In this document: piece by piece, positions 38,245-60,270 of the stretch | Position numbering within the stretch: the first letter of the stretch is position 1 | How the letters are laid out: every line of letters begins with the position of its first letter | DNA from: Yuukianura sp. NJ FZ-2021 | Taxonomy: Eukaryota | Reading direction: 5' to 3' | Assembly (NCBI GenBank): GCA_046563655.1 | Contig: CM102287.1 | Span: 8,990,001 to 9,054,000, forward strand | Length of the DNA: 64,000 nucleotides | The notes under the pieces: generated by a model | Database searches by the model: none | What the model saw: the letters and a program-made list of their open reading frames with translations, nothing else | Told to the model about the DNA's origin: nothing | Program-made: the position numbers and the translations under genes

Positions 38245-40779
38245 TTAAGTTAACATATTCACATCAAACTCCATTTGTGTTCCTTCTTCCTGTTCGTTAT
38301 CCTCTTCAGATTCGTCCGAATCCTCTGGACTACAATTGGACAACTCGTCTTCCGCTACTTTATTCTGTACCGCAGCATTTTCGGTTACTTTTCGTTTCCT
38401 TCTGGTTCTACCACCAACGGCAGGTGGTGATCGTGTCAATTTGCGGTTAGATTTAAATCCTGTTATTGCCCTTGCTTCCTCTTCAGTCTTGCCATGTTGC
38501 GACATGAGATGAGTGCACAGATTTAGACGTCTCATATAAACTCGATTACAAATTGAACACGTAGGGGTGCTGGCCTTGATTTCTTTGTAGACGCGATCCC
38601 CGTTCGGTAGAACACGAAAAATCGTGGGCCGTCTCATTTTCGCTGCAACCGTCGCTTCCTCTTTTGTCATTTTATGAGTATACATATAATGTTCTTTCAA
38701 CGCGCTCTTGAATGCAAATGCATTCCCACAGATCTCACAAACTTGGTCACGAATCTGCGACTTCTGGTGGACACGGTATACATGGCCTCTGAGGTGATGG
38801 GCAGCTTTAAAAGTTTTTTTGCATTGGTCGCAAGAGAAATTCCGTTCTTCGGTGTGAACAAATTGATGTTTTTTCAGAAAGATTTTGCTTGAAAATGCCA
38901 TTCCGCAGGTCTCACAAGTAACAGTCTTCAGATTGAGTACGACGTCAAGATGAGTATTTTCATGCAGTGTCAAACCACCTATAAAATTCACACACAAAAA
39001 TTGTAACAATAAGTTACAAACTTGAGAGAGCGAAATTGCCCAAATTACCTTTCGTGGTAAACGCAGCGCCACAATAAGTACAGAGGAATTCCTTCACAAG
39101 CGGTGTGTCACTATGTAGTACTTTCATGTGGTGTTCAAGACCATCTTTTGTTGTCAATGCTTTGCCACAAATGTCACAAGTGTAGTTACGCACCTTGAAA
39201 TGCTTGCACTTGATATGCTGGATTATATACGTCGTTGTGTCATACGTTTTCCCACATAATGGACAGGGACGAATCAATTTGGCCTTTGGAAACAAAACTG
39301 CTGATTTTTCAATATCCTTGTAGCCAGTATTCAATTTATGGTCTTTTTCCTGATGAACCACCCACTCCTTGAATGTATCGAAATTCACATCTTTGCAGTC
39401 GTCTCCATTACATTTGTATCGGCTTGAATCGATCAAGGCCTTTTGCTCGTCGGTGAGATCTTCAAGATGGTAGCGGAGCTCGCTGGGAATCACAGGATAC
39501 TGAAATTTTAAAAATACAAAATACTAAGCAAATAATTTATTCATGAAGAAGAAAAAAGGTGACCAATGAACTTACACGAGCACCATGTTCAATGGTCTTA
39601 TGGCGATCGAGGAGCGTCTGTGTTGCAAAACGCTGTGTACAATCCGTTTCTGAGCAAACCGCGGTCTTACGCTTTTCCCGCTCGTAGGCTCTAGTGCCAA
39701 CAGCATTTGCTCGTCGCACTCGCTTTCCCAAATCAGGATCAACGTTTCCTGAATGTTGCTTCTGCAAATAAAAATCAAATCGAAAAATTCTTACTCAACG
39801 TTTCTACTTTTGTGCCAGAATTAGAATTAAGTACTACACACGACAGTGGTACCTCTGAAATATGAAAGGTAGGCCTTACGTTCGAATCAGAATCATCTTT
39901 TGTAGTCTGCAGTAGCTTCCTTCTAAGAATACGAGCTTTATTCCGCAGATTACTGTTAGTAAGAGGAGTAGTTGGATTTTTCTTATCGCCAGAGGAGATT
40001 TTCAGTATTTTGTTTCGTTTTGCAGTTGCCGCTGGTTTCCGGTTTGATCGTCGCGGCAAAGTAGTTGCAGGTAGAGTAGCTGGCTTTTGCTCAACAGAAG
40101 TTCCTAAGCTTTCCAAAAAACTGTAAGAGTCATCTACGTCATCGTTTTCCGTAATTTCTTGTTGTTCATGCTTAGCAACATCATCAAAATTTTCACCAAC
40201 AACGCAGTCAGGAACAATCGTTTCTGGTTGAGAAACTATATCCGGAATCGATGTCGGGAGATGTTCCGGAAAGATAATCAATGGTAAGTGGGAAAATTGT
40301 GGAAGTATGACGCTAACAGGCAATGTGCCTGTTTGCTGAGTTGTCTGGGGCAAACCGCTGCTTGGCTCCAGAGTTGATGAAGGAGCAGGACAACGACGCC
40401 CCTTCGTTCTCGGTTTTCTTTTCCGGGCGGTGGAGCTGAATTGATTAGAAACCTCCTTTTGAACATTTCGTACGTGAGAGTCGGGATGTGACCTTTCAAA
40501 GAAGGCGGAGTAGAGAGCCATAAGTTTTGCAAATGGTGTTCCACAGGGAATGCAAAGATTGAGGCGTTGAGAGTCCAGTTCAGCTTGTGGGATTGATTGA
40601 CGAGACTTCAAAAGCAGCTCAAGTCCTTCATAAATGCTTCGTATGGTGCCATTTTCAGCAGCATAAGCCCCGAGCTTGCCGTCTGCTGTTAAAAACTGAG
40701 CACAACAGTTAGCACATTTAGTGACAGATACAGATACAGATGGAGACTGGATTGAACCAGCATCAGCATTGCTATCCAT
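38245..40779 (-). CDS. ZAD-like + C2H2 zinc-finger protein, paralogue A; exons 40779-39880, 39761-39576, 39499-39049, 38978-38245
   Basis: N-terminal CANC...LCIPC..F (ZAD-like), about 9 C2H2 fingers, acidic tail; GT-AG introns conserved across three paralogues. Confidence 0.88.
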
Positions 40780-41021
40780 CGCTCTTCGCCTACCTAGTCC
40801 AAAAACAAACAACAGAAGTTAGCATTATACAACTTATTTTATTTCTTAATCGTTCGTATCGTAACGTAGGTACAGTACATGTGATTTACCTAAACTTCCG
40901 GAAAGAAGCCAGTAGTTTTTGAAAACCTCAGCACTCAGCGTTAGCAGTAGTAACTACGATTGATTAGTTTAAATTGAATTTGATTCTAAATTCTAGATTT
41001 TAAAAAGTCAAAAATAAAAAA

Positions 41022-41092
41022 CAAGGACTTTACATATTGGTCCCCGCCTTCGCCCACACACATACAAATCACCCGTTCACCACAGCTGGGCA
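41022..41092 (-). promoter_or_regulatory. Conserved upstream module of zinc-finger paralogue A (copies at 46009-46075 and 50060-50130)
   Basis: CAAGGACT...T(T/C)CCCGC...CACACACA...TCACCC...AGCTGGG is retained 5' of all three paralogues. Confidence 0.55.
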
Positions 41093-41263
41093 TTTTTTAT
41101 ATAATTTTCTAAAGCAGGTTTCCAAGCAATATTTTCTAAAACATACTTTTTTTTCTAAACATATAAAGAAACGTAAGACGTAAAATCAAGCTGACTTTTG
41201 AAAGCAGTAATTTAACTGCTGGAATTCAAAATTGTAATAAAAGTAACTACTATAAAGTATAGA

Positions 41264-44200
41264 TTAAGTTAGGACATTCAAATCAAAGTCTATTTGTGTT
41301 CCTTTTTCCTGCTCGTCGTCTTCAGATTCATCCGAAGTGTCTGGACTAGCACTGGACAACTCGTCTTCCGATACTTCCTTTTGTATCGCAGCATTTCCGG
41401 TTACTTTTCGTTTCCTTCTGGTTCTACCACCAACGGCAGTTGGTGATCGTGTCAATTTGCGGTTAGATTTAAATCCTGTTATTGCCCTCGCTTCTTCTTC
41501 AGTTTTGCCATGCTGGGATATGAGATGAGTGCAGAGATTTAGACGTCTCACATAAACTCGATTACAAATTGAACACGTAGGGGTGTTGACCTTGATTTCT
41601 TTGTAGACGCGATCCCCGTTCGGCAAAACACGAAAAATCGTGCCTCGTCTTATTTTCGCTGCAGCTCTGGCTTCCTCGTTTGTCATTTTGTGAATATAAA
41701 CAAAATGATCTTTCAACCCGCTTTTGAATGCGTATGCATTCCCACAGATCTCACAGACTTGGTCACGAATCTGGGACTTCTGGTGGACACGGTATACATG
41801 GCCTTTGAGACTATGAAGAGTTTTAAAAGTGTTCTTGCATTGGTCGCAAGAGAAATTCCGTTCCTCGGTGTGAATAGCTTGATGCCTTTCTAGACGGCTT
41901 TTTCTAGCAAACGCCATTCCGCAAGTCTCACAAGTATTAGTCTTCGTATTGCGTAGGATGTCAAGATGAGTATTTTCATGCGCAGTCATACCAGCTATAA
42001 AATTCAAAATTCGAAAAAATTGTTCATATCTGTAAATTAAGTTACAAACTTAAGAAAAAAAATTGACATCATTACCTTTCGTTGTAAACGCCTCACCACA
42101 GTAGGTACAAAGGAATTCCTTCGGAACCGGTGTGTCACTATGCAGTACTTTCATGTGCTGTTCAAGACCAGCTTTTGTTGCCAATGCGTTGCCACAAATG
42201 TCACAAGTGTAGTTACGCACCTTGAAATGCTTGCACTTGATATGCTTGACTATATACGACGTTGAGACAAACTTTTCCCCACATAATGGACAGGGACGAA
42301 TCAATTTGTCCTTTGGAAACAAAACTGCCGAGTTTTCAATATCCTCGTAACCAGTATTCAATTGATGGTCTTTTTCCTGATGAACCACCCACTCTTTGAA
42401 TGTATCGAAATTCACATCTTTACAGTGGGCTCCATTACATTTGTATCGGCTTGAATCGATCACGGCTCTTTGCTCGTCTGTTAGGTCGTCAAGACGGTAG
42501 CAGACCTCGCTGGGAATCACAGGATACTGAAATTTTAAAAATAAATACAAAATATTATTTAGCAAGCAACTAATTTATTCACAAAGAAAAAAAAATAAGC
42601 CGCCCAATGAACTTACACGAGCACCATGTTCAATCGTCTTATGGCGATCGAGGAGTGTCTGTGTTGCAAATGGCTGTGTACAATCCATTTCTGAGCAAAC
42701 GAAAGGTTTCTTCCGCTTTTCCCGGTCGGAGGCTCCAGTGGCAACAGCATTTGCTCGTCGCACTCGCTTTTCCAGCACAGAATCAATGTTTCCTGAATGC
42801 TGGTTCTGCAAATAAAAATCAAATCGAAAAAGTCTTACTCAACGTTGCTCCTTTTGCCAGTGAATTAGTAGTATACTAGTACGAAATATGAAAAGGTACG
42901 CATTACTACTGGGTCTCCCCAGACGGACGAAAAAAAAATGAGATTGTGCATCGCGTTTCAACCAAAAAACAAACAACTTTTCCAAAATCACCCCGAGTTT
43001 CACAAAATCTACCGAAAAAATATTTATGCTAAGGCCGGATTACTATGGAGGGGCAATAACGACTTTCACTAATAATTATATTTATATTACAATTAAATAT
43101 TTTTCCCTTAAAATAAAAAAAAGTTCACAAAAAGAAAAAAAAAGTTTTGGAAAAAAATTTTTTTTTTGTATTTAAAAAAAATAATTTTTGTACTTAAAAG
43201 TATTTTTCTAAATTAGAAATATTTTTTTATATCTAAAAAAAGTTTTTCAAAAAAATATTTTTTTAGTTATAAAGTTTATTTTCGCTTAAAAAAACTTTAT
43301 TTTTGACGGAAGAAATATAAATGTGGAGCACTGTGAGAAAACTTTTTTTTTTAAAAAGAAAAAATTTTTCTTTGGGATTGTGTCGTCATAAGCCAGGATT
43401 CGGTGGCCACTTGTGTTCTCCCAATTGCATACCACGCGAGTCCACTGTTGTCGGTTTTGAAATTCAGAGAGGACCATGCCTTTGACAAGGAAGTTTTTCT
43501 CGTGCCAGGGAGGTGGTCCAACTGCTCGATGGACAATAGACTTGCATAGAGCGTAGGTAGCGCTAGTCTGGCGGAAAGAAGGAGAAACACACGATATCAG
43601 CAATGAAAGGGGCCAGAATTGATAACGCTGGAAAGAAAAACATGTTTCTCATTCTTTCCGCCAGACTAGCGCTACCGACACTCTATGTAAGTCTATTGTC
43701 CACCGAGCACCGAGTCCTCTCTGAATTTCAAAACCGGCAACAGTGGAGTGGCGTGGTATGCAATTGGGAGAACACAACTGACCACCGAATCCTGGCTTAT
43801 GACGTCACAACACCAACTTCAGAAAGAAAATTTTTTTTCTTTTTTTCATTTAAAAAGTTTTTTTCACAGTGCTCCACATTTATATTTTTTCGGTCAAAAA
43901 TAAAGTTTTTTTTATACAAAAAAAAAACTGTATAACTAAAAAATACTTTTTTAAAGAACTTTTTTTTTAATATAAAAAAATATTTCTAATTTAGAAAAAT
44001 ACTTTTAAGTACAAAAATTATTTTTTAAATACGAAAAAAAAATTTTTTTCAAAACTTTTTTCTTCTTTTTGTAAACTTTTTTTTTTATTTTAAGGAAAAA
44101 AATTTTAATTATAAGATAAAAATAATTATTAGTGAAAGTCGTTATTACCCCTCCATAGATTACACTTACATTTCCTAACCGTGACTGAGAACAGTTGTTT

Positions 44201-45677
44201 GAGAAAATTTACAAGCGAGTAAGAATTTTGCTAAAATGAAACAAAGGTAGGGTAAAGACGACTATCAGAGTAAGCTGGGGGTTTCGTTTCTTCGTTTGCT
44301 GGACTTCCAGTAGTTCCAGTATCGAATTCTAAATCCGGCTTGAGGAATGCTGGAGGAGGGGGGCGAGGAGGGGGGGTACGATTAAGAGGAGGAATGGTGA
44401 TCGGAATTGATGGCAGATTAGGTGGAAGAGCAGGATAACGTACAGCAGGAGGTAATGCTGGAAATGTCGGTGGCTGACGCTGCCGGCTTGTCGTAATTGT
44501 CGTCGGAAGCAAAGCTTAACAATAAAAACTAAAATTAATCCTTTTGTAATTGATTTCTGAAAACAATTGACTAACCCCTGCTGCAGCAAAGCCAACATGC
44601 CAGCCGACGTACACAGGCGTACAAGATAAGAGCAACTAGGAAAACTGTAAGCAAAAGTATGACGTCATTAGGTTCAAAAATGAAGGAATGAAGCTTAACT
44701 ATCAACAACGTTTTACATGACTTACTCAACACGGAATACACCAACTCAATTTCCCACTTGTCATTTAGAAATTTCGTTATTCTGAAACGCGCAAGAAAAA
44801 AGGTGTGGGAAGTGGGCCTTAAAAAATTGTACATCGCCAAAGAAACCTGTTTTTTTTTGGTGCATCAAAATGGAAAAGCTGCACAATCTCATTTTTTTTT
44901 CGTCGGTCTGGGGAGACCCAGTAGTACGTTCGAATCGGAATCATCTTTTGTAGTCTGCAGTAGCTGCCTTCTAAGAATACGAGCTTTATTCCGCAGATTA
45001 CTGTTAGTAATAGGAGTAGTTGGATTTTTCTTATCTCCAGAGGAGAATTTCAGTATTTTAATCCGTCTTGCAACTGCGGCAGGTTTCCGGGTAGCTCGTT
45101 GCGGCAAAGTACTTGCAGGAGGAGTAACTGGCTTTTGTTCAACAGAAGTTCCTAAGTTTTTCAAATAAGTATAAGAGTCATCCACGTCATCGTTTTCCGT
45201 AATTTCTTGTTGTTCATTCGTAGCAACATCATCAAAATTCTCATCAACAAGGCAGTCGGGAACAATCGTTTCTGGTTCATAAACTGCATCCGGAATCGAT
45301 ACTGGGAACTGCTCCGGAAGTATAATGATGGTGGGACTGAATTGGCTAGAAACCTGATCTTGAAGTTTTCGTACGTGAGAGTCAGGATGTGACCTTTCAA
45401 GAAAGGCATAGTAGAAAGCCATAAGTTTCACAAAGGGTGTTCCACAGGGAATGCAAACCCTGAGGCGTTGAGAGTCCAGCTCAGCTTGTGGGATTGATTG
45501 ACGAGACTTAAAAAGCAGCTCAAGTCCTTCATAAACGCTTCGTATGGTACCATTTCCACCAGCAGCATAAGCCCCAAGCTTGGCGTCTGCTGTTAAAAAC
45601 TGAGCACAACAGTTAGCACATTTAGTGACAGATACAGATGGAGACTGGATTGAACCAGCTTCAACATTGCTATCCAT
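41264..45677 (-). CDS. ZAD-like + C2H2 zinc-finger protein, paralogue B; exons 45677-44928, 42805-42617, 42526-42076, 41994-41264
   Basis: Highly similar to paralogue A; frame intact. First coding intron is expanded by a 2-kb insertion; internal deletion of about 50 aa after the ZAD-like domain. Confidence 0.85.
43043..44158. mobile_element. Nested foldback element with imperfect arms of about 520-550 bp
   Basis: CTATGGAGGGG...CCCCTCCATAG termini; flanking direct repeat ATTA (or GATTAC if the ends are trimmed by 1 nt); arms about 43043-43590 and 43641-44158. Confidence 0.88.
44231..44834 (-). CDS. Transposon-borne spliced ORF: single TM, Cys cluster, Pro-rich tail; exons (44834 or 44781)-44726, 44644-44576, 44514-44231
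   Basis: Two phase-1 GT-AG introns (81 and 61 nt) give ...WEIELVYSVLIFLVALILYACVRRLACWLCCSRALLPTT...PPPRPPPP...KPPAYSDSRLYPTFVSF*; start uncertain. Confidence 0.6.
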
Positions 45678-46228
45678 CGCTCTTCGCCCACCTAATTCCA
45701 AAAACAAAGAACACAATACACAAGTTAGCGTATACAACGTATTTTTTAATCGTTAGTACATGTGATTTACCTAAACTTCCGGAAGGAACGAAGGAAGCCG
45801 AAGCCAGTAGTTTTTCAGCACTCAGCGTCAGCAGTAGTAACTGTAGCAAAGAAGGTCGTACCAACGACTCCAAACAACCACGTAATAATCGACTCCTGTC
45901 TTTATCAAGTGTTATTCTTGATCTTAGTAGTATGTGTCTGATCGATTAGTTTAATTGAATTTGAATTAGATTTTAAATTATAAATTCTAAAAAGTCAAAA
46001 ATAAAATACAAGGACTAAATATTCGTTCCCGCGTTCGTCCACACACATACAGATCACCCGTTCACCACAGCTGGGTATTTTTACACAAATTTTCTAAGCA
46101 GCACTGTCTAAACATACTTCTGACTAAACGTAAAACGTAAAATCAAAATCAAGGTGACTGTTGAAAGCAGTAATATAATCCAACCGCTGGAATTCAAACT
46201 TGTAATAAAAGTAAAAGTAAAGTTTAGA

Positions 46229-49200
46229 TTAAGTTAGCATATTCAAATCAAAGTCCATTTGTGATTCTTCCTGTTCGTCATCGTCTTCAGATTCATCCGA
46301 AGTGTCTTGACTTTCACTGAACAACTCTTCTTCTGATACTTCCTTTTGTACCGCAGCATTTCCGGTTACTTTTCGTTTCCTTCTGGTTCTGGCAGCAACA
46401 GCAGTTGGTGATCGGGTCAATTTCCGGTCAGATTTAAATCCAGTTATTGCCCTCGCTTCTTCTTCAGTCTTGCCATGTTGCGACATGAGATGAGTACAGA
46501 GATTTAGACGCCTCACATAAACTCGATTGCAAATTGAACATGTAGTGGGGTTGACCGGGATTTCTTTGTAGACGCGATCCCCGTTCGGTAGAACACGAAA
46601 AATCGATTGGCGTTTCATTTTAGCTGCAACTCTGGCTTCTTCTTTCGTCATTTTATGAATATACATAAAATGTTCTTTGAGCGAACTCTTGAAAGCGTAT
46701 GCATTCCCACAGATCTCACAAACTTTGTCACGAATCTGCTGGTCCTTCTGGTGGATACGGTAAACATGGTTTTTTAGGCTTTGAGCAGATTTAACAGTTT
46801 TGTTGCACTGGTCACACGAGAATTTCCTCTCTTCGGTGTGAACAATTTGATGCTTTTGTAGGTGATAATTTTTTGAAAATGCCTTTCCGCAAGTCTCACA
46901 ACTAAAAGTCTTCGTATTGAGTAGGATGTCAAGATGAGTGTTTTCATGTAGAGTCAAGGCACCTACAAAATTCCAGAGTTAACAAAATTCCGCAAGAAAG
47001 AAAACTATGAATCCAAACAAGAACGTACCTTTCGATGCAAACGCATCACCACAATAAGTACAAAGGAAATCCTTCGCAAGCGGTGTGTCACTATGTATTA
47101 ATTTCATGTGCTTTTCAACACCAGTTTTCGATGACAATGCTTTGCCACAAATACCACAAGGGAAGTCACGCGTGTTGAAATGCTTGCGCTTGATATGATT
47201 GATTATATCCGTCGTAGAGACACACTTTCTCCCACATAATGGACATGGGCGAATCAATTTGTGCTTCGGAAATAGAACTGATTGCTTTTCAATATCCTCG
47301 TAGCCAGTGTTCAATTGATGGTCTTTTTCCTGATGAACCACCCACTCCTTGAATGTATCGAAATTCACATCTTTGCAATCGGCTCCATCACACTTGTACG
47401 TTACGCTCGAGTCGATCAAGGCCCTTTGCTCATCGGTTAGATCTTGCAGGCTTTCACGGAACTCGCTGGGAATCATAGGATACTAAAATATGAAAAATAC
47501 AAAACACTGAAGCGAACTTGAGCAAGCAAACAATTTAGTTGTGATAAAAAATAAGCTGGTCGGTGAACTTACACGAACACCATGTTCAGTGGCTTTATGG
47601 CGATCGAGGAACGTCTGTGTTCCAAAACGCTGTGTACAATCCATTTCTGAGCAAACGAATGTTTTCTTCTGCTTTTCGCACTCATAGGAACTAGTACTAG
47701 CGTATGCTCGTTGAACTTGAACTTGCTCTTCCAATTCAGAATCACTGTTACCAGAATGATGTTTCTGCAAACAATAATCAAATTGAAAAATTCTTCAACA
47801 TTGCTCATTTCCACTTGATTAGTGCCTATGAAGTATCACTAAAAGGAAAAGATTTGCCTTACGTTTGACTCAGGATCATCTTTTCTGGTCTGGAGTAGCT
47901 GCTTCCTTCTATGAATATGAGGGTCGTTCAGCAGATTACTCTTAGTAGGAGTAGTTGGATTTTTCTTCACTGCGGAGTAGATTTTCAGTATTCTATTTCT
48001 TGTAGTTTCAGAGGATTCATGTTTCTTTTGTTTCGCAAAAATCCTTGGAGCAACAGGCTTTGGCTTTTGCTGGAAAGAAGCTTTTAAAGTTTTCCAGAAC
48101 GCGTAAGAGTGATCCAAGTGATCGCTTTCCGTAGGTTCATTTTGTTGATCCGTACCAACATCATCCAAATCCTCATCAACAATGCAATCGGGAACAATCG
48201 TTTCTGGTTCAGAAACTGCAACTGGAATCGATGTTGGAAGTGGAGTTTCCGGAAGGATAATGAATGGTAAGCGTGAAGATTGTGGAAGTATGACGCTAAC
48301 TGGTAATTTGCCTCTCTGCTGATTTGCTTGAGGCAAATCGTTGCTTTCCACACGAGTTGACGAAGGATCCGGACGAAGATGTCCCATCGTTACCGTGTCT
48401 CTTTCCCCGGCGGTGGAGCTGAAGTGATCAGAAACCTCCTTTTGAAGATTACGTACGTAAGAGTCGGAAAGTGATCTTTCAAGAAACGACGAGTAGCAAT
48501 CCATCAGCTTTTGAAAATGCGTTCCGCAGAGTGAGCAAAGGGTGAGCTTTTGAGAATTAAGTTCCGCTCGTGGGATTGATTGACGTGACTTGAATAGCAG
48601 TTGGAGTCCTTCATAGACGCTTCGTGAGGTACCATTCACATCAGCATCATACGTACTGACACCGAGGCTAAGGTCTGCTGTTAAAAACTGAACACCGCAG
48701 TTGACACATTTAGTAAAGGCAGAACATGGGAATACCGTGTTGACTTGATTGACGCTAGCTGGATTTGTGCCTCTCATGGTCCTAGACATCGGATATTGTT
48801 CTACTAGTCGTGAGTTTCGAGTTTTTGGAGGAGTAGCTACAGCTACAAAGGCAGGCTGACTTGCGCCAGCATCAGTATTGTTATCCAGTTCCAACCTGTT
48901 AAAAACACAACACAAATTAGCATAAAGAATTCCTTATTTAGTTTTGGATCAGAATCATTCTTCGAAATTAATTAAGACAATGTCACGTCACATGTTGAAT
49001 TCAAATCGAATTTTACTTTTCGTTACATGATTGCACAGATCATTATCATTACCTTAACTTCTGGGTGGAAGCCAAGCCAATAGACTTGTTATTAACGTCA
49101 CGATCAGAGTCAGCAGCAGTACTGTCTATATCCCTAAAAAACGAGTAGACAATTTTGCAAAAAAATGTTCGTTTCAATTTCGTTGCTCAAAGTTATCTCC

Positions 49201-49518
49201 ATTAACTAAAGCACACTCCTCCAGTCATGCTCATGATTAGAAATCCAGCTCTTACATTTTTGTACGGTTCTGTAGAGTGATTAGTGTCTTGGGTCTGCCT
49301 GGTGGCTTCTTGTTCGCCAGGCTATTTTCTTCTACGAATCTGGACACGACTCGTTTAACTGTGTGATGCGATAATTCATGTTGAAATTCTCCAAAAAACT
49401 CCTCACGAATACGTGACGTACGTCCCCGACCCAACTTTTCATGTTCAAACCATTTTTGCACTAAGAATATACGTTCAGTTTCCGTTGTTTGAGTCTGGGG
49501 TGTTCTACTATTATTCAT
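46229..49518 (-). CDS. Transposase-HTH + ZAD-like + C2H2 zinc-finger fusion, paralogue C; exons 49518-49256, 49133-49053, 48895-47863, 47764-47573, 47482-47029, 46962-46229
   Basis: The paralogous ATG is CTG here. Two upstream exons splice in phase 2/2 without stops. The first encodes ERIFLVQKWF...IREEF..EF...SHHTVKRVVSRFVEENSLANKKPPGRPKT. Confidence 0.8.
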
Positions 49519-50453
49519 GGTGCACCAATTTTCTTTTCAATTTCTGTAAAAAAAACACTGGTTAATACGGTTAAGTCCTCATACGATTTGTAACCACCGA
49601 CTTCACTTTACAATTGGATCATTGAAGTTGCACTTAAGTTACCTCTACTCTAGTCCCAAGCCCAACGAAGTGTGAATGGTTCTCTTCAATCACCCAGAAG
49701 TTATCCAGTTTCCAGTACTGATTATTGACCTCGAGCTCGACAACGTAAATTCCAAACCTAAACAACTAAAAATCTTTTTAAAGTTATGACACTATAAAAT
49801 CAAACTTTAAAGGTTGAGATAAGGCTTAACGAACGCGGTTGTAGCCGTACGACGAACAAAGACCGGCCACCAATAGTTGCTACAACGGGTGATGGTGGGT
49901 GGCTACACTGTGCGGCAACTTGTATTGCGACTTTAGCTTAGGTTAATGTGGAGATTTCAGTTGCCAATCAAGTGTAGCCATTAAAAATGGTGGTGACTAC
50001 GCATAGTGCGGCTACAATTACAACGGTGGTCGTTCATCCTTGTGTCGCAAAGTGAAAACCAAGGACTAAAAACAAGTTCCCGCGCTCACAAACACACACA
50101 TGCATCGTCACCCCTTTGACCAGAGCTGGGCACTTTCCAAACACATTTTCTAAACGTCACAAGAACGTTTTCTAAACAAATTTTACTTTCAACGTTTCTG
50201 TAAATAACAAATGATAAATAATACAAATATTAAGCTAAAGAACGTTTTCATTATTAATACATAAGTAAAAGTACGAAAAATCGAACCTGTAATAGTCAAA
50301 TACCTGTAAATAGTCAAGTCCTACTCCTTCCTTACTAAAAAAAAAAAAAAAACACGACAGAAGAACCATTTCTACACCAATTTTAGAACAAAAAGATGAG
50401 AAAAGTACAGTGGAAGGTCAATCAATATACACTGATCAATCTAACTTGAATGT

Positions 50454-52787
50454 TTACAGCATGTGTTGTTCAGCTTCATCTTCGGCGTCTGCATGTGCGT
50501 CGTCAGGAAGAATAGTAATGCTGGATTGCGGTTGTGGTTCTGGTTTAGCTGGAAATGATTCCGATGACTTACTGCTTTGAAACGATTGGTCTCTGTTTTT
50601 GCAGTTCTTGTAATGGCGAAAAAGTCTCGGTGCTTGGGCACTCACTAGCTGTCCACATTCCAGGCATTGCTGCTTCCTCTGTCCATCTAAAATGAACTCG
50701 GTGAAGTACGACCACACTTCACTCGGTGGCCTTCCGATGCTGCCTTGTCCGATTCTGTTACGCGGTATCTTGGGAGGTGGTGGCGGTAAGTCATCATCAT
50801 CGCCTGGAACAAAGGAAAGTACATACAAAAACGTTCTGTTTTCGTTGTGTTAAGTTAGTTCACTAACCAGCTTTTTGGCTTTCGGCAGCCGTTCCAGTAT
50901 CAATGGAACCACGATGTTGTCTAGGATTAACCTCAACTTGGATTTTGTGCTTGAACTTGAGATGTGCATGGAGAGATGATGTACTGCAATCCTTGACTTT
51001 GAGAATTGATTGGACACCTTCCTGGTCACAAAGTTTGCATAGTGCAGAGTCTCCGTTTTCCTCACGCAGGTAATACTTCCATACTGGAGTTCGAGTAACC
51101 CGTTCCCCAGGTTGAGGTTCTTCTTCGGAGTAAAATTTTACAAAAACTTTCTTTTCGAGTCCTTTTGGCACAGAAGATGGACCTGATAACAAGAAAAACT
51201 TAACTTTTTGATTAATTCGTTGCACCTCAATTTCAATTTACGTAAGTAGTAGAAGCAAACCTTCAGAATCAAGATTTGTATCTCCCGTGATAAGATCTTC
51301 GTCATTTCCGAAATCGCTCGGGAACGAATTCTCTTCAGCTTCGTCTCCACCTCCTTCCGAGTCTTCGAATTCACCACCTTATTTTAGAAAATGTTAATTA
51401 AAAAGTACAATTAACGTCAATTCCAAGAACTTACCTGACCCGTGTTTCATCTTCAGGCGTTTCCGTCGTTCACGTCTTGCTAATGTTGCTCGAACGGCTC
51501 GTCGCTTTCCATATAACGAATTTTGGTTGGGCTCTTCAGTGGAAAAGTCAAGATCTCCTTCGACTGTTTCAGCTCCGTTCTCAGAAAACTTGAGTGACAG
51601 TCCACTGGCAGCAAGATCGGAAATGTTTTTCCAGTGGGCCAACACAGTTTCGTGCAGAGCATGCTCTCTATCCAGTAACTTCTTCTGCACTGTAAACAAC
51701 TCTGCGAAGAAGTAAAAACGTATTTGATGAGTTAACTTCCACCAGATCAATACTTGTCGACATCACGACGTTCGACGTACCGTTTCTGGTCATAAGAACT
51801 TGTTCGACAATTGTCATTTTCATGTCCACTTCGGCCCGAAACTTCTTGAGAACTTCTTCCAGCTGTGTAACTTTCTCTTGCAATCCGAGCTCAGTAGATT
51901 CGTCCAGCCCTTCATTAGTAGAAACTCCCCGAACTTGGGGCATGTACTGCTGACATTCTGAAAATCAAATCACGATGTAAAGTATCTTTCAAATTAATCC
52001 GCTTCCGTCAAAGAGATTTGCTTCCTGTATAAACTGCTTACCTGGATGATCGGCATGGCGCTTTGCCAAATGATTCTTCAAGCGATCCACAAGCCCAATT
52101 TGTTTCCAGTCGCATAATCTACATTTGGCTATCTCAATTCTCCCATTCGGATTTGGCTCTCGGTCAAAGCTGTCCCAGATTGGATCCCTTGGACGTGGCA
52201 TACCGATGTCGTACTCTTGGAAAAATTAAAAAAAGACTTGAAGTCAAAATCATGCAACATACTAATTAATTAAAGTCGTGCGCAGGCAGGGGTGGCAAAA
52301 TTACGTCAGTTTCAGGAAAGTGACGTTAGTAACGTTACTAACGTTTAAAACGCGTTTAAATCATAAATTGTGGAAAATCCGTTCCAGTCCTACGGCAGTC
52401 GCGTTAGCAGAAAGATACTGAGCGCAAATCTTAAGCCATGGCCTTTTGTAATTTTTCCCAATCAAACCTAACCCTTGAAAATTTTACTTGTGATTTGCGA
52501 ACTGGCTCTTCCAGATTCTGAATCTGCATGATACCAATATCAAAAATCATCGTTCGTTACAATACAATTAAATCCACCATTCAAGTTTACCACTTACCTG
52601 GCTTGGAAGTAGAAGATGTCGCCTCAATCTCAATTGCTGAGTTGTGGGTAGCGAAGTGAGCTTTCATACGGCCTGGAATCCCAATATGCTTCCAACTGCA
52701 TATCGAACATTTTGCTATTGGTTGGTTACCGTGAGGATTGGGTTCAGCCTCAAAGTGATCCCAAACCGGATCTTTGCCGCGTGGCAT
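50454..52787 (-). CDS. Multi-BED zinc-finger protein (4 BED domains); exons 52787-52598, 52215-52042, 51957-51781, 51701-51435, 51377-51261, 51182-50868, 50803-50454
   Basis: Four W..F/Y...CxxC...HxxxH/C BED signatures (DPVWDHF, DPIWDSF, TPVWKYY, SEVWSYF), a coiled-coil and acidic linkers; all exons join in frame. Confidence 0.8.
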
Positions 52788-54587: not shown

Positions 54588-54659
54588 CTAAAGACCTAAT
54601 CAAAACAGAAATCAAGACTCTTGACTTAAATCCAATTTAACTTTTTTTTTATTTCAGAA

Positions 54660-56481
54660 ATGGATGATATTTTACCGGCCGAGGTATGTGGTAATTTAAA
54701 CTCTGAAGTTAACGTATTTATAGATATGCTACTTCATAAGTATGAAGTTTTAATTGTTTGCTTCTTGCAGATTATCAAGAAAATACTTGAGAAGGTAGAC
54801 AATATCAAGGATCTCAACAACTGCCGTTTAGTGAACCGGACATGGAATAAGTTGGGTTGGGAAGCGCTGAAAACATCCTACACTCCACTCATTTGCTTCT
54901 CAAATGATGAGTCCTTATTGGGGTTTCTTGACTGCTACAAAGCTTCCATTGGAATTCAATTGACCAAATTTCATTTTCAGCTGGATAAGCTCTCTTCTAC
55001 CGTTACACAGGAATTTATTACGTTTGCCGATCAATATTCATTGCAGTTGGAAGAGCTAAGCTTTGAGTTAAGCGTGAAGATTTTCACTACGGGAGATGTG
55101 GATAAACTGCAACTAATGTTATCCTTCATCTATGCATCGCCATATCTTACTCGTTTGAGTATTAACGTCTCCCAGCGGAATAGCCGACGCCGACAACAAC
55201 AGCCATCACCATTCAATAAAGCAGGATTAAGTCCCTACCTTCTCCCGTTCGTTCCGGAATCGCTGCCAAACCTTCGATCAATCCAATTTAATCGCGACAT
55301 CGCAAATGCAACTGAATCGGACGCAGACGGTCGCTGGTTTCTGCTCACATTACTCAAGAATATTTGTCCAAATCTTCGAGAAATTGTCGTCTCAACATGG
55401 AAAGACACTCAAGTATCTCTTGTCACACCACTGCTCACTCTCTTCAAAGACACGGAACACATCATTCTGCGAAACGTTTCGTTTGCTACTTACGATTCGT
55501 CTGATATTGAAGCTCTTCGAGTTAGAAGTTACAAGTTGACGAAACTGGATCTACGAATTACCTACGACTATCATAAAGCGAATGCGCGCAGAAATCCCTA
55601 CCCGAACCTCCGCCAAGTTCATTCTGTTTTTTATTCATGGATTGAACATCACTCCAAGACATTGAAGAGATTGACACTTATTTTCGAAAGAGTTTCAGAA
55701 TTTAATTTGCCGAAACTGGAAGTCCTGGAGTCACTTGAGATTGGGTTGGGAGCTTACGATGATGACGATGACGATGGTCCTCTCCTGCCATTGAATACTT
55801 CAGTAATGCCAATGCTAAAATCCGTCACGCTCAAATTTTATAATGACCGCTGGAAACTTTTCACCTTTGGAACGTTTGTCACCGTCGAGTCGTTGACAAT
55901 CCTGGGCTACCAAACAGAAGATATTCTCACCCCTTGGGAAAAAGTGTTCCCGAATCTCAATACACTGGAATTGATTTGTCTAAGGAAAAACCAATACACA
56001 AGTATTCTGGTTCGCACTAAAAACTTGCGACACTTGAAGCTCGAGTTTACAATAAACACAGGACGGTTATTGGGACCACCAGCAGAAGTATTAGATAAAC
56101 TCCCAGACTACCCAAGATTTCCTTTACTAAAATGCTTGGCATCTTACGATCGTATGTTAATTTTTTAAATTGAAACTTGAAATGATAATGTCTCACATTT
56201 TTTGTTTTTGAATGTCATTTTAGAACTGGAATCTCTTTACATCAAAGAAGCCGGATCCTCAACACTTGCTGAAATTGTCAAGATGTCTCAAGAAGGATTG
56301 CTCAAACGTTTAGTAAATCTAACGTTCGAGGGACACACGATGGTAATTGTATCTCAATCTCAATTGATCAAGTCACTCAATTATGATTAATTATCAATGT
56401 CATTTGTATTAATTTGTATAGATGACGAGCGACCAAATTGAAATTCTGAAATCCGTCCATGGGAATGTCTCGTTCTTGTAG
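54660..56481 (+). CDS. F-box + LRR-like protein, paralogue 1; exons 54660-54683, 54771-56151, 56224-56342, 56422-56481
   Basis: LPAE|IIKKILEKV...DLNNCRLVNRTWN F-box signature followed by LxxLxL repeats (LPNLRSI, CPNLREI, FPNLNTLEL). Confidence 0.88.
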
Positions 56482-57404: not shown

Positions 57405-60270
57405 ATGGGTGACATTTTGCCGGCCGAGGTATGTGATATAGTTAAACTTTGAAGTTAATGAGGCGATTTACAGATTCGCTTATACGCAATTTCCCATAAG
57501 ACTTTTGGTGCATTTATTTCCTGATTGGTTAGGCGCTCAAAAAACTACGACCACACTTTTCGCATTAGCATACGCTGCTCCACATCCCGAGAATCGGCTT
57601 CCGGACGAAAACAGGACCCTTCGTCCACAAAACATAGGTTTTCTGGATGACGTTCCAGAAATCCACGGATTTTTGCTTTCTTTTCCTACGCATGGCAAAA
57701 CGGTTGAAGATTCGTCAAAAAGCTGATTCTCGGGATGTGGAGCAGCGTATGCTAATGCGAAAAGTGTGGTCGTAGTTTTTTGAGCGCCTAACCAATCAGG
57801 AAATAAATGCACCTTAAGATTGGGTCAGAGTTCACGAATTTTGTGTTTACAATTTACAATTTCGTATTACGTCACTAAGAGTTGGGGCAACGTGAGAATT
57901 GAGGCTAAGAAATGGCTCACCCACTTCGCCATACCTATTCAGAAAAACCGCGAATGGTTCTCAAATTTGAAATTTTACGCAGTGATTCGCGAGTTAGCAT
58001 GAGTTGTACAAAATTTCAATCGTCAAGAATCCACCCGGCAGGGTTTTGCATGATAACGTAATGTGGGATTTCTCAATTCTCAGTCGTTGCTATGTCTACA
58101 AAGCGTTTTTTAGCGTTATTTTTATTGACCTGATGTCTCACCTTAACGTATATTTATAGATTCACACAATTGAGACTGAGAGATATGGCACTCCATAGTG
58201 TGAGATTTTAATTGTTTGTTTCTTGTAGATTATCAAGAAAATACTTGAGAAGGTAGACACTGCCAAGGATCTCAACAACTGCCGTTTAGTAAACCGGAAA
58301 TGGAATATGTTGGCTTGGGAAGCGCTGAAACCATCCTACACTCAGCAGCTCATTTCCTTCGGCAATGATGAGTCTCTTTTGCGGTTTCTCGACTGCTACA
58401 AAGCTTCCATTGGAATTCAATTTACCAAGTTCCATTTTCATCTGGATAAGCTCTCTGCTACCGCAACACAGGAATTTGCTACGTTTGCCAATCAATATTC
58501 ATTGCAGTTGGAAGAACTTAGCTTTAAGTTTGGCATGAAGCTTTTCACTACAGTAGATGCGAACAAACTGCATCTGATGTTATCCTTGATCCATGCCTCG
58601 CCATATCTTACTCGTTTGAGTTTCAACGGCTCCCCGCAGTATAGCCAACTCCGGCCATCACCATCACCATTCAATAGAGCAGCTTTAAGTCACCACCTCT
58701 CTATTCTTCCGGAATCGCTGCCAAACCTTCGATCACTCCAATTTAATTACGGCATCACAACTGTCACGGAATCGGATGAAGATGTTCGTTGGTTTCTGTT
58801 CACATTACTCAGGAAGATTTCTCCAAATCTTAAAGAAATTGTTGTCTCAGCATGGAAAGACACACAAGTCTCTCGTGTCATGCCGTTGCTCACTCTCTTC
58901 AAAGACACGGAGCGCATCATTCTGCGAAACGTTTCGTTTGCTATTTACGATTCATCTAATATTGAAGCTCTTCAAGTTACAAATTACAAGTTGACCGAAC
59001 TGCATCTACGAGTTACCTACGACTATCATAAAGCGCTCCGCGCCGCGCGCCGAAATCGATTCCCAAACCGCGACCAAGTATATTCTACTTTACGTTCATG
59101 GCTGGAGCAACACTCCAAGACACTGAAGAGATTGAAGCTTCTTTTCGAAAACGTTTCACGCTTTCCTTTACCGAAACTGGAAGTGCTGGAATCGCTTGAC
59201 ATTGGGTTGGGAACTTACGATGATGATGACGATGACATCATTGACATCCCTGGCAATGGCAATGATCCTCCTGTACTGCCATTGAATACTTCAGAACTGC
59301 CAATGCTAAAATCCGTCACGCTAAACCTTTATAACGACCGCTGGAATCTTTTCACCTTTGGAGGCTTTGTCACCGTCGAGTCCTTGACAATCCATAACTA
59401 CCAAACAGAATGTATTGGCACTCCCTGGGAAAATGTGTTTCCGAATCTGAAGACACTGGAACTGATTTGTCTCAGGAAAAACCAATACGAAAGTATTCTA
59501 GTTCGTACTAACAACGTGCGACACTTGAAGCTCGAGTTTTTTATAAACATGGGAGTGCTAACATATGGATCACCAGAAGAATTAGCTAAACTCGAAGAAT
59601 TAGAGAAAGACTACCCAAGATTTCCTTCACTACAATGCTTGGCATCTTACGATCGTATGTTAATTTATTAAGAAACTTGAAATCAAGGTTGCTATAGCAA
59701 CCAATTGTATTGCTACAAGAGGTTATTCAATACCTCCGAAGTTTATAAAAATTCAGTGAAAACCAACAACTTTTTGGACCAATGGTCCAATTCCGTTACA
59801 TTACATAGTACATAATATTACATATTACATAGTACATACAAATCATTACCATAGTAAGGCACGGCAAAGCAAGTTTTGGAAAACAAAATATTTAACAAAA
59901 TTAAAAAACATCGAGTTAATGAATAACCTCTTGTAGCAATCAACAATCTTCTTGTTTACCCACCTTGCTTGAAATCATAATGTCTCACAATTTTGTTTTT
60001 GAATGTCATTTTAGAACTGGAATCTCTTTACATCAACGAAGCCGGATCCTCAACACTTGCTGAAATTGTCAAGATGACTCAAGAAGGATTGCTGAAACGT
60101 TTAGTAAATCTAACGTTCGAGGGGCACACGACGGTAATTCATTGTTTCTCAACTGATCAAGTCACTCACTTATGATTACTTATCAATGTCATTTGTACTA
60201 ATTCGTTTAGATGACGAGCGACCAAATTGAAATTCTGAAATCCGTCCATGGAAATGTCTCGTTCTTGTAG
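57405..60270 (+). CDS. F-box + LRR-like protein, paralogue 2; exons 57405-57428, 58229-59654, 60015-60133, 60211-60270
   Basis: Same exon structure as paralogue 1; the duplicated unit spans about 53360-56760 versus 56860-60550. Confidence 0.88.
57459..58142. mobile_element. TTAA-flanked insertion in intron 1 of F-box paralogue 2, containing an inner palindromic MITE (57507-57813)
   Basis: Paralogue 1 reads GAAG-TTAA-CGTAT; here TTAA occurs at 57455 and 58143. The inner element has 94-bp arms GGTGCATTTATTTCC...GGAAATAAATGCACC|TTAA. Confidence 0.8.
59684..59967. mobile_element. Small DNA-transposon insertion with 8-bp TSD (P- or hAT-like)
   Basis: CTTGAAAT|CAAGGT...ACCTTG|CTTGAAAT; internal 21-bp inverted repeat ATTGCTACAAGAGGTTATTCA; single CTTGAAAT in paralogue 1. 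Confidence 0.85.

Follow-up and report, generated by a model that had tools for sequence, protein, structure and literature searches.

A possible transposase-type HTH exon at the head of a tandemly duplicated C2H2 zinc-finger gene in Yuukianura sp.

Results

Three tandem zinc-finger genes

A tblastn search with exon translations located three tandem copies of one gene, all on the minus strand of the window (the whole stretch of DNA analysed, 64 kb): paralogue A at 38248–40779 (gene model of 755 aa), paralogue B at 41267–45677 (705 aa) and gene C at 46229–49518, for which we built a six-exon model by reading the sequence and joining the exons with a script. The three form a lineage-specific tandem trio, each member having an N-terminal four-cysteine domain and then about nine C2H2 fingers. 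As the original prediction had it, A and B each begin at their own ATG and can serve as unfused controls for C. Paralogue C is the outgroup to A+B, and its exon 6 is 76–78% identical to theirs. When the six exons of C are joined, the ORF comprises 2757 nt and 918 codons, with a single stop at its end, and the predicted introns (5/5) all have GT and AG at their borders. The prediction had also placed an upstream ORF (49518–49256), an 81-nt exon and a ZAD-like exon in one open frame; all of these coordinates and frames are indeed present in the sequence.

The 3' half of the gene C model (all features here are on the minus strand) is that of a zinc-finger gene. Exon 4 (47573–47764) contributes 64 codons and one C2H2-like motif (zf-C2H2 E 0.039 only), exon 5 (47029–47482) contributes C2H2 zinc fingers (zf-C2H2_4 E 7.4e-11; zf-C2H2 E 1.1e-08), and exon 6 (46229–46962) contains further C2H2 zinc fingers (zf-C2H2 E 7.6e-16, with four matched stretches), an acidic tail and the stop codon. 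The exon 6 match lies above the profile’s threshold (58 bits versus 25.2); judged by these profiles, gene C encodes a C2H2 zinc-finger protein. An alignment of the zinc-finger tail was also run against metagenome contigs, and the single locus obtained, a generic one with 31% identity, was uninformative.

Exon 3 (47863–48895; acceptor aacag|G at 48895) encodes a CxxC-x53-CxxC domain (48415–48741), of which the four cysteines, C12, C15, C69 and C72, are invariant across the three paralogues (alignment A3). Thus two CxxC pairs, about 50 residues apart, lie N-terminal to the C2H2 array, and this is the layout that defines the ZAD. The description of this domain as ZAD-like holds for the layout; the profile did not follow, in that zf-AD (PF07776) matched none of the three paralogue domains at E<=10, and exon 3 of C gave no match at E<=1. 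An AlphaFold2 model of the cysteine domain, built on the three-sequence alignment, was of low confidence (pLDDT 59.4); a wide VIA-align search with this model gave 11 of 48,161 chains at Z>=5 and none at Z>=8, with no ZAD among the best 50 listed. The ESM Atlas returned unnamed bacterial clusters for this domain, at scores of 0.82 or below, and no zf-AD/ZAD. A PDB profile search with alignment A3 yielded one row (E 0.53) and no ZAD match, and a word-indexed search for a longer annotated protein containing exon 3 confirmed none of 1953 candidates.

The start of gene C

Exon 3 also contains a CTG (48888–48886) that, in agreement with the original prediction, aligns with the ATG of A and B. C has nevertheless remained intact over about 830 homologous codons, with no stop or frameshift. 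Its pairwise omega values are 0.49 (A–C) and 0.41 (B–C), at dS 0.40–0.46, the A–B value being 0.53; hand arithmetic from the pairwise distances puts omega on the C-plus-stem branch at about 0.43. These values cover the host part of C, which is under selective constraint; the candidate HTH exon described below has no comparator sequence. Bearing in mind that this constraint and integrity persist despite the CTG, C should be translated, and hence needs a start codon. The first internal Met is the ATG at 48789, upstream of the cysteine domain and inside an exon 3 insert of 39 alignment columns that only C has; this N-terminal region is the most diverged part of C.

The candidate HTH exon lies further upstream (49256–49543, minus strand). 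Its ORF runs from an ATG at 49518, preceded by an A at −3 and, seven codons upstream, by a stop in the same frame, to the donor AT|gtaaga at 49256: 263 nt, or 87 codons plus 2 nt. Predicted intron 1 (49134–49255, minus strand; 122 nt, GTAAGA to TTTTTTAG) separates it from the 81-nt exon (49053–49133, minus strand), which is bordered by the acceptor ttttttag|G at 49133 and the donor AG|gtaatg at 49053. An alternative AG occurs 12 nt downstream of the intron 1 acceptor, and its use would likewise keep the frame. Were intron 1 retained, the candidate HTH ORF would meet an in-frame TAA immediately.

The 81-nt exon had been proposed as the homologue of an apparently non-coding 5' exon in the other two genes; alignment A1 agrees, the donor included, which is conserved. 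In C the three frames of this exon contain 5, 0 and 2 stops, and the sole open frame is that needed by both of its neighbours; in A and B, the corresponding frame of their 5' exon is interrupted by stops. The joining frame is free of stops over the 62 codons that run from the start of the 81-nt exon up to the first internal Met, while the other two contain 7 and 6. The 81-nt exon has no ATG, and the only ATG in a leader that begins at this exon is out of frame. Furthermore, the stop that terminates the candidate HTH ORF falls within a GTRAG donor, an arrangement found in only 4 of 192 control ORFs of at least 60 codons. ORF length by itself is uninformative, because ORFs of at least 94 codons occur about once per kb of non-genic DNA in the window (47 in 43.9 kb). 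Nor does codon usage reveal a host-like coding signature: the log-odds of the HTH ORF, 0.046, ranks at the 5th percentile among windows of genuine CDS, and 23.5% of other ORFs score at least as high.

The DNA upstream of the trio members

A module of about 105 nt, presumably promoter or regulatory sequence, lies upstream of all three genes, at 50049–50153 in C, 46097–45998 in B and 41113–41011 in A (all minus strand; blastn, 71–73% identity). Its distance from the 5' exon is roughly 55 nt in A, 150 nt in B and 915 nt in C. The claim that C has some 0.8 kb of extra sequence between the module and the 81-nt exon is close to what we measured, about 0.9 kb, and this extra DNA is C-specific. The part of it upstream of the candidate exon (49544–50048, minus strand) matches only itself in the window by blastn, and its local similarity to the upstream DNA of A or B does not exceed that of shuffled sequences (67 of 200 and 125 of 200 reach the observed score). 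Similarly, tblastn and blastn with the HTH ORF gave only the self-match within the 64-kb window.

Directly before 49543 is the acceptor-like sequence tttttttacag. An unspliced leader from the module to the ATG at 49518 would include five upstream ATGs, each opening a short ORF. Four TGTAGCC motifs on alternating strands cluster at 49840–50016, so that 4 of the 7 sites window-wide fall in the C-specific segment. Around this segment we found no convincing TIRs or target-site duplication, and bounding it no other transposase remnant (catalytic domain). No Rfam family matched 45800–50500 at E<=1, and the inverted repeats at 49825–50030 have a folding z-score of just −1.36.

Resemblance of the candidate exon to transposase HTH domains

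Two libraries place nearly the same residues of the candidate ORF on transposase-type domains: Pfam HTH_32 matches residues 53–81 (E 0.0042; 18 bits against a curated cut-off of 33.7), and the NCBIfam IS630 transposase model NF033545 matches residues 48–82 (E 0.004; 16.6 bits against a cut-off of 100) at profile positions 23–59 of 299, i.e., in its N-terminal region. Among 101 control ORFs, none matched any HTH or transposase family of Pfam, and none matched any NCBIfam family at E<=0.01. Two of the 101 did reach E<=0.0042 to some Pfam family, and the nominal Pfam E-value is therefore optimistic. The proposal of a Tc1/mariner-type HTH is consequently upheld insofar as the resemblance exceeds that of the controls; both profile scores are far below their curated cut-offs.

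The further suggestion that the exon is DUF4817-like (PF16087, a family that we take to be linked with mariner-like transposases) fared less well: neither the DUF4817 nor the HTH_48 profile gave a HMMER match to the ORF even at E<=10, and what is left is a lead from the ESM Atlas below that tool’s own bar of 0.9. There, clusters of arthropod DUF4817 proteins rank first, one scoring 0.89 (70 aa; DUF4817 assigned to 96% of members) and the next 0.88 (104 aa; 60% of members), with arthropods the commonest phylum. The best ten family-bearing matches all belong to the DUF4817 family or clan, a level of agreement that a third of shuffled proteins reach as well.

A single-sequence AlphaFold2 model of the ORF, of low confidence (mean pLDDT 53.9), has helices at residues 13–28, 36–46 and 51–68, and a GRPK motif follows the third of these at residues 74–77. 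Foldseek with this model against the PDB gave no match at E<=0.001 and four rows at E between 7 and 9. Searches with the ORF sequence itself yielded no homologue: phmmer found none at E<=0.001 among 1.84 billion representatives and none at E<=10 in the PDB; in the word-indexed searches, none of 14 candidates for longer proteins was confirmed, and there was no near candidate at E up to 10; none of 376 pattern matches in metagenome contigs, or of 9 in viral contigs, was confirmed.

Discussion

We hypothesize that gene C is a host–transposase fusion, a reading that is plausible, unproven, and in our estimation just short of an even chance. Translation of C would begin at the ATG at 49518 in the C-specific upstream exon, the usual family start being CTG in this gene. 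That exon would encode about 87 residues, with a predicted three-helix HTH, most like the first HTH of transposases of the IS630/Tc1/mariner superfamily, followed by a GRPK linker. From the GTAAG donor that closes the ORF, the HTH exon would then be spliced to what was once a 5'-UTR exon and would now be coding, and through it to the zinc-finger exons, to give a product of 918 aa with a transposase-type HTH ahead of its C2H2 array. Such a protein would likely bind DNA as a transcription factor or repressor whose target specificity has been extended or changed, and its targets might possibly be the ends of the parent transposon family. More tentatively, we picture a fusion of recent origin, set in an insect-like genome: an HTH of the Tc1/mariner superfamily that may have arrived with the transposon’s own start codon and an acceptor-like site would have become an N-terminal DNA-binding module, as the UTR exon was made coding and the old ATG was lost. 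Since C is the outgroup to A+B, gain of the exon in C and its loss in the ancestor of A and B are each possible, at a cost of one event apiece.

The arrangement could also arise if the upstream ORF were never joined to the gene, being instead the relic of an inserted element, or a uORF in or before the 5' leader of C, with the protein starting at Met 48789 from a transcript that begins downstream of the ORF or skips it. We consider this rather unlikely, although several observations suit it. Met 48789 lies ahead of the CxxC...CxxC domain, such that no conserved part would be lost and the zinc-finger protein would be complete without the HTH; ORFs of similar length are common in the window and codon usage does not discriminate; A and B function with a short leader that begins just past the module and has no upstream ATGs, an unspliced leader in C would have to accommodate five of them, and retention of intron 1 leads at once to a stop. 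An unjoined ORF would, however, leave to coincidence the 62 stop-free codons before Met 48789, which extend across a junction and a formerly non-coding exon, as well as the agreement of phase at both junctions and the strong donor placed precisely at the end of the ORF. It would also require another promoter, the conserved module being 0.9 kb upstream, and an 88-codon uORF in good start context, if unspliced, would be expected to lower translation of a constrained gene.

If the junction is accepted, the exon might still be a real N-terminal coding extension of C that did not come from a transposase: a helical segment of orphan or de novo origin, or some other host HTH, its weak family matches being convergent or due to chance. 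The sub-threshold score of every family match, the lack of a homologue in any of the sequence searches (phmmer, word-indexed, PDB, metagenome and viral), the absence of transposon ends and of a catalytic-domain remnant, and the two control ORFs with an equally small Pfam E-value are all consistent with such an origin. We judge it improbable nonetheless: two libraries put the same residues (48–82) on the N-terminal HTH of IS630-type transposases, which no control ORF does, the ESM-Atlas matches point the same way (subject to the behaviour of the shuffled proteins noted above), and the GRPK motif is sited after the third predicted helix. We give very little credence to the idea that C, having lost its start codon, is a duplicate now silent or in decay, its fusion frame being coincidental. 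The loss of the ancestral ATG and the divergence of the N-terminal region, with its C-specific insert, would fit decay; the open reading frame has survived at dS 0.40–0.46, omega is similar to or below that of A–B, and every splice site is intact.

For the proposed fusion, the closest precedents are those of tetrapods, in which transposase DNA-binding domains have been captured repeatedly by splicing and, according to the portions of the preprint drawn on here, an acceptor-like site lay just upstream of the transposase ORF in 8 of the 9 cases examined (Cosby et al., bioRxiv 10.1101/2020.05.07.082677). KRABINER, SETMAR and the POGK-type KRAB fusions resemble the proposed C in that a transposase DNA-binding domain is spliced to host exons in one ORF; in the same excerpts, a transposon in or next to a gene of a zinc-finger family provides the new exon, as it would in C, and C too has an acceptor-like site just upstream of its transposase-type ORF (49544). 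There are also differences. The transposase piece in the proposed C is N-terminal and would supply a start codon and a donor, whereas those parts of the preprint describe a C-terminal domain that is entered via an acceptor; unlike the tetrapod fusions presented there, C would keep just the first HTH (87 residues); its host part is a four-cysteine domain followed by C2H2 fingers, in place of KRAB, SCAN or SET; and for C, unlike for those fusions, we infer both the transposon origin and the transcript from sequence.

A second precedent comes from Caenorhabditis, where F-box genes captured a Tc1/Mariner HTH; the resulting HTH/F-box family numbers 497 proteins, with clear similarity to Mos1, and the sections of that article on which we rely mention one arthropod protein (PMC12062965). 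As in the proposed C, a Tc1/Mariner-type HTH there sits on a member of a multicopy, fast-evolving host family. By comparison with that large family as those sections portray it, C stands alone beside two sisters that lack the fusion, its similarity is sub-threshold, and its host domain is another one.

Two arthropod families offer partial likenesses. The HTH-only DUF4817 proteins are similar to the 87-residue ORF in size and layout, notwithstanding the absence of a HMMER match. Insect ZAD–C2H2 genes are, like the trio, fast-evolving and arranged in tandem, with an N-terminal CxxC...CxxC ahead of a C2H2 array; the trio differs from them in its zf-AD profile result. In full-text literature searches, no paper paired a host–transposase fusion with ZAD, and the terms ‘zinc finger-associated domain’, ‘transposase’ and ‘domesticated’ came together only in a review on ecdysteroid regulators. 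Judging by the search listings, none of the papers on DUF4817 concerns fusions, and none of those combining host–transposase fusion with insects describes an insect fusion.

Systematic catalogues of host–transposase fusions exist for tetrapods (as described in the consulted parts of bioRxiv 10.1101/2020.05.07.082677), and for nematodes one family is on record in the corresponding parts of PMC12062965, so that an arthropod C2H2 example would extend the phenomenon. Should the junction not be real, the candidate exon would be just another relic ORF within a 5' region. If it is real, the steps of transposase-domain capture would be visible side by side at one locus: a conserved promoter module, an added exon with its ATG and donor, a UTR exon made coding, and a disabled ancestral start. 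Gene C would then be an arthropod counterpart of the KRAB–transposase fusions in the opposite orientation, with the transposase piece first and joined via a donor. Its two unfused paralogues would be the controls in a natural experiment on zinc-finger repressors that gain specificity for transposon ends, and the trio would offer a practicable way to test whether HTHs, once captured, redirect zinc-finger regulators to those ends.

Architecture of gene C and its paralogues

We read the minus strand directly over 46000-50400 and rebuilt the model of gene C by script; the exons and joined frame described at this gene in the original prediction are all present. The proposed start codon at 49518 (ATG, with A at position -3) lies 7 codons downstream of an in-frame stop. 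It opens the HTH exon (49518-49256; 87 codons plus 2 nt), a candidate transposase-type DNA-binding domain that ends AT/gtaaga (a slash marks the exon boundary); if its intron is kept, an in-frame TAA immediately follows the open reading frame (ORF). An interval of 122 nt, closed by the acceptor ttttttag/G, leads to an 81-nt exon (49133-49053; donor AG/gtaatg), in which a second AG, 12 nt inside, would likewise preserve the frame. Another 157 nt (acceptor aacag/G) precedes exon 3, which starts at 48895, and exons 4 (47764-47573), 5 (47482-47029) and 6 (46962-46229), likewise on the minus strand, have GT/AG boundaries. The script joins these into 2757 nt: 918 residues and a single terminal stop.

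Searching the exon translations against the window with tblastn yields three tandem minus-strand zinc-finger paralogues, A (38248-40779), B (41267-45677) and C (46229-49518 as joined above); the HTH ORF matches nothing there but itself. Homology-built models of A (755 aa) and B (705 aa) are intact, each with its own ATG, and DNA alignment places that ATG over a CTG (48888-48886) in C, the start-codon change originally proposed. The proposed homology of the 81-nt exon is also borne out: its counterpart in the alignment is the 5' exon of A and B, with the donor conserved. That 5' exon contains no ATG, and the frame matching C's coding frame holds stops. In the spliced leaders of B (45691-45997) and A (40793-41010), the ATG frame is open upstream for 66 and 25 codons, respectively; it contains no ATG through the spliced 5' exon, and is probably open by chance.

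The minus-strand intron of B carries a DNA element (42904-44926, ~2.0 kb) of foldback or MITE-like type, with 47-nt terminal inverted repeats (42904-42950 and 44880-44926, 98% complementary) and long internal inverted repeats. This element, which looks like a recent insertion, sits one base after the final base of B's exon (44928), so that B's donor, GTACTA, is partly element sequence; it may affect B's splicing.

Upstream of all three genes lies a block of ~105 nt with 71-73% identity, at 50049-50153 (C), 45998-46097 (B) and 41011-41113 (A). The stop codon of the preceding gene lies 100-200 nt upstream of this module, and the modules of A and B have a CAGCTG core. The gap from module end to 5' exon is ~55 nt in A, ~150 nt in B and ~915 nt in C. 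Within the window, the C-specific DNA has no match but itself, and it has no significant local similarity to the upstream DNA of A or B, the observed score being reached by 67/200 and 125/200 shuffles, respectively. Just downstream of C's module, four of the seven TGTAGCC sites in the window cluster at 49840-50016 on alternating strands as nested short inverted repeats (~0.01 sites expected by hand arithmetic; fold z-score only -1.36); they could be a binding-site cluster or the remnant of an element end. Directly upstream of the module is a 131-codon ORF (50454-50849, minus strand) whose translation has a CxxC...H...C pattern and a stretch rich in proline, and which has no Pfam match at E<=0.05. 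Further along, two long plus-strand ORFs (54630-56168, 512 codons; 58229-59671, 480 codons) lie in tandem; their translations resemble each other by eye, and they look like a further pair of tandem paralogues.

Resemblance of the encoded domains to known families

The HTH ORF has a sole Pfam match, HTH_32 (E 0.0042, residues 53-81; 18 bits, cut-off 33.7), and a sole NCBIfam match, an IS630-family transposase model (E 0.004; 16.6 bits, cut-off 100), which residues 48-82 match in its N-terminal part (profile positions 23-59 of 299). Our control set comprised all stop-to-stop ORFs of 70-120 codons outside recognised genes (n=101). Pfam matched some family in 11/101 of these at E<=0.05 and in 2/101 at E<=0.0042, with an HTH or transposase family in 0/101; NCBIfam matched any family at E<=0.01 in 0/101. 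In an ESM-Atlas feature search the top places go to arthropod DUF4817 clusters (0.89 and 0.88), with HTH_48 lower; these values lie under the tool's 0.9 bar and serve as a lead only. AlphaFold2, run on the single sequence, models three helices (13-28, 36-46 and 51-68) followed by a GRPK motif, but at a mean pLDDT of 53.9. HMMER gave no DUF4817 match at E<=10, and nothing was found by phmmer against 1.84 billion representatives or PDB, by word-indexed searches, from metagenome or viral contigs, or by Foldseek with the model. We judge the resemblance to a transposase HTH to be real but weak, and we think it likely that the ORF encodes a transposase-type HTH. HTH_32, the IS630 model and the controls support that resemblance; the assignment to mariner or DUF4817 specifically was not upheld.

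N-terminal to the C2H2 array, CxxC-x53-CxxC is invariant in all three paralogues. This predicted domain is ZAD-like in layout, as had been claimed, but the profile searches did not support membership of the zf-AD family: zf-AD matches none of the three at E<=10. A PDB profile search and ESM Atlas found nothing relevant, and VIA-align of a low-confidence model (pLDDT 59.4) gave middling scores only, with no ZAD entry among the matches listed.

Translation start and history of gene C

Gene C has zero stops or frameshifts over ~830 homologous codons, and omega is 0.49 against A and 0.41 against B (dS 0.40-0.46), or ~0.43 on the C-plus-stem branch by three-point hand arithmetic on pairwise distances. 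Intact and constrained, C is judged to be functional, and so needs a start codon. It could be translated from its first internal Met (ATG at 48789), which lies upstream of the cysteine domain within an insert that is specific to C and spans 39 alignment columns. Also speaking against the fusion, ORFs of such length are common (47 of at least 94 codons in 43.9 kb), making length uninformative; codon usage is equally silent, and the unspliced module-to-ATG region contains five short upstream-ATG ORFs. Against an internal start, the joining frame is free of stops over the 62 codons upstream of 48789, a stretch that crosses the predicted splice junction and takes in the former UTR exon, whereas the other two frames hold 7 and 6 stops (5, 0 and 2 per frame in the 81-nt exon alone). 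This frame looks maintained, to judge from its stop-free reading. A leader starting at the 81-nt exon has a sole ATG, out of frame. The HTH ORF's own stop falls inside a GTRAG donor, as in only 4/192 control ORFs. We regard a spliced, translated fusion of a transposase-type HTH to gene C as a tentative prediction, a serious possibility just short of probable: the sequence geometry and the HTH resemblance support the original reading in part but do not prove it.

Of the three genes, A and B are each other's closest relatives (dS 0.195, omega 0.53), with C as the outgroup. The segment may have been gained in C or lost in the A/B ancestor, one event each. A and B hold as unfused sister genes; with no outgroup beyond the trio, the proposed capture within the tandem family stands as one of two one-event histories.

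Comparison with known fusions

A survey of tetrapods (bioRxiv 10.1101/2020.05.07.082677) reports at least 94 captures of transposase domains, most of them DNA-binding; the usual route was a splice acceptor shortly before the transposase ORF, which puts the transposase piece C-terminal to the host domains. Like the fusions described there, C has an acceptor-like site (49544), 25 nt upstream of the ATG; unlike them, the join proposed for C runs through a donor that follows the first HTH and would put the transposase-type piece at the N-terminus. Caenorhabditis F-box genes are described, in PMC12062965, as a multicopy host family with a captured Tc1/Mariner HTH; in the literature as partly accessible, we found no paper linking host-transposase fusions with ZAD genes. 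If the prediction is true, gene C would be a new host-transposase fusion of unusual orientation, with unfused paralogues as built-in controls.
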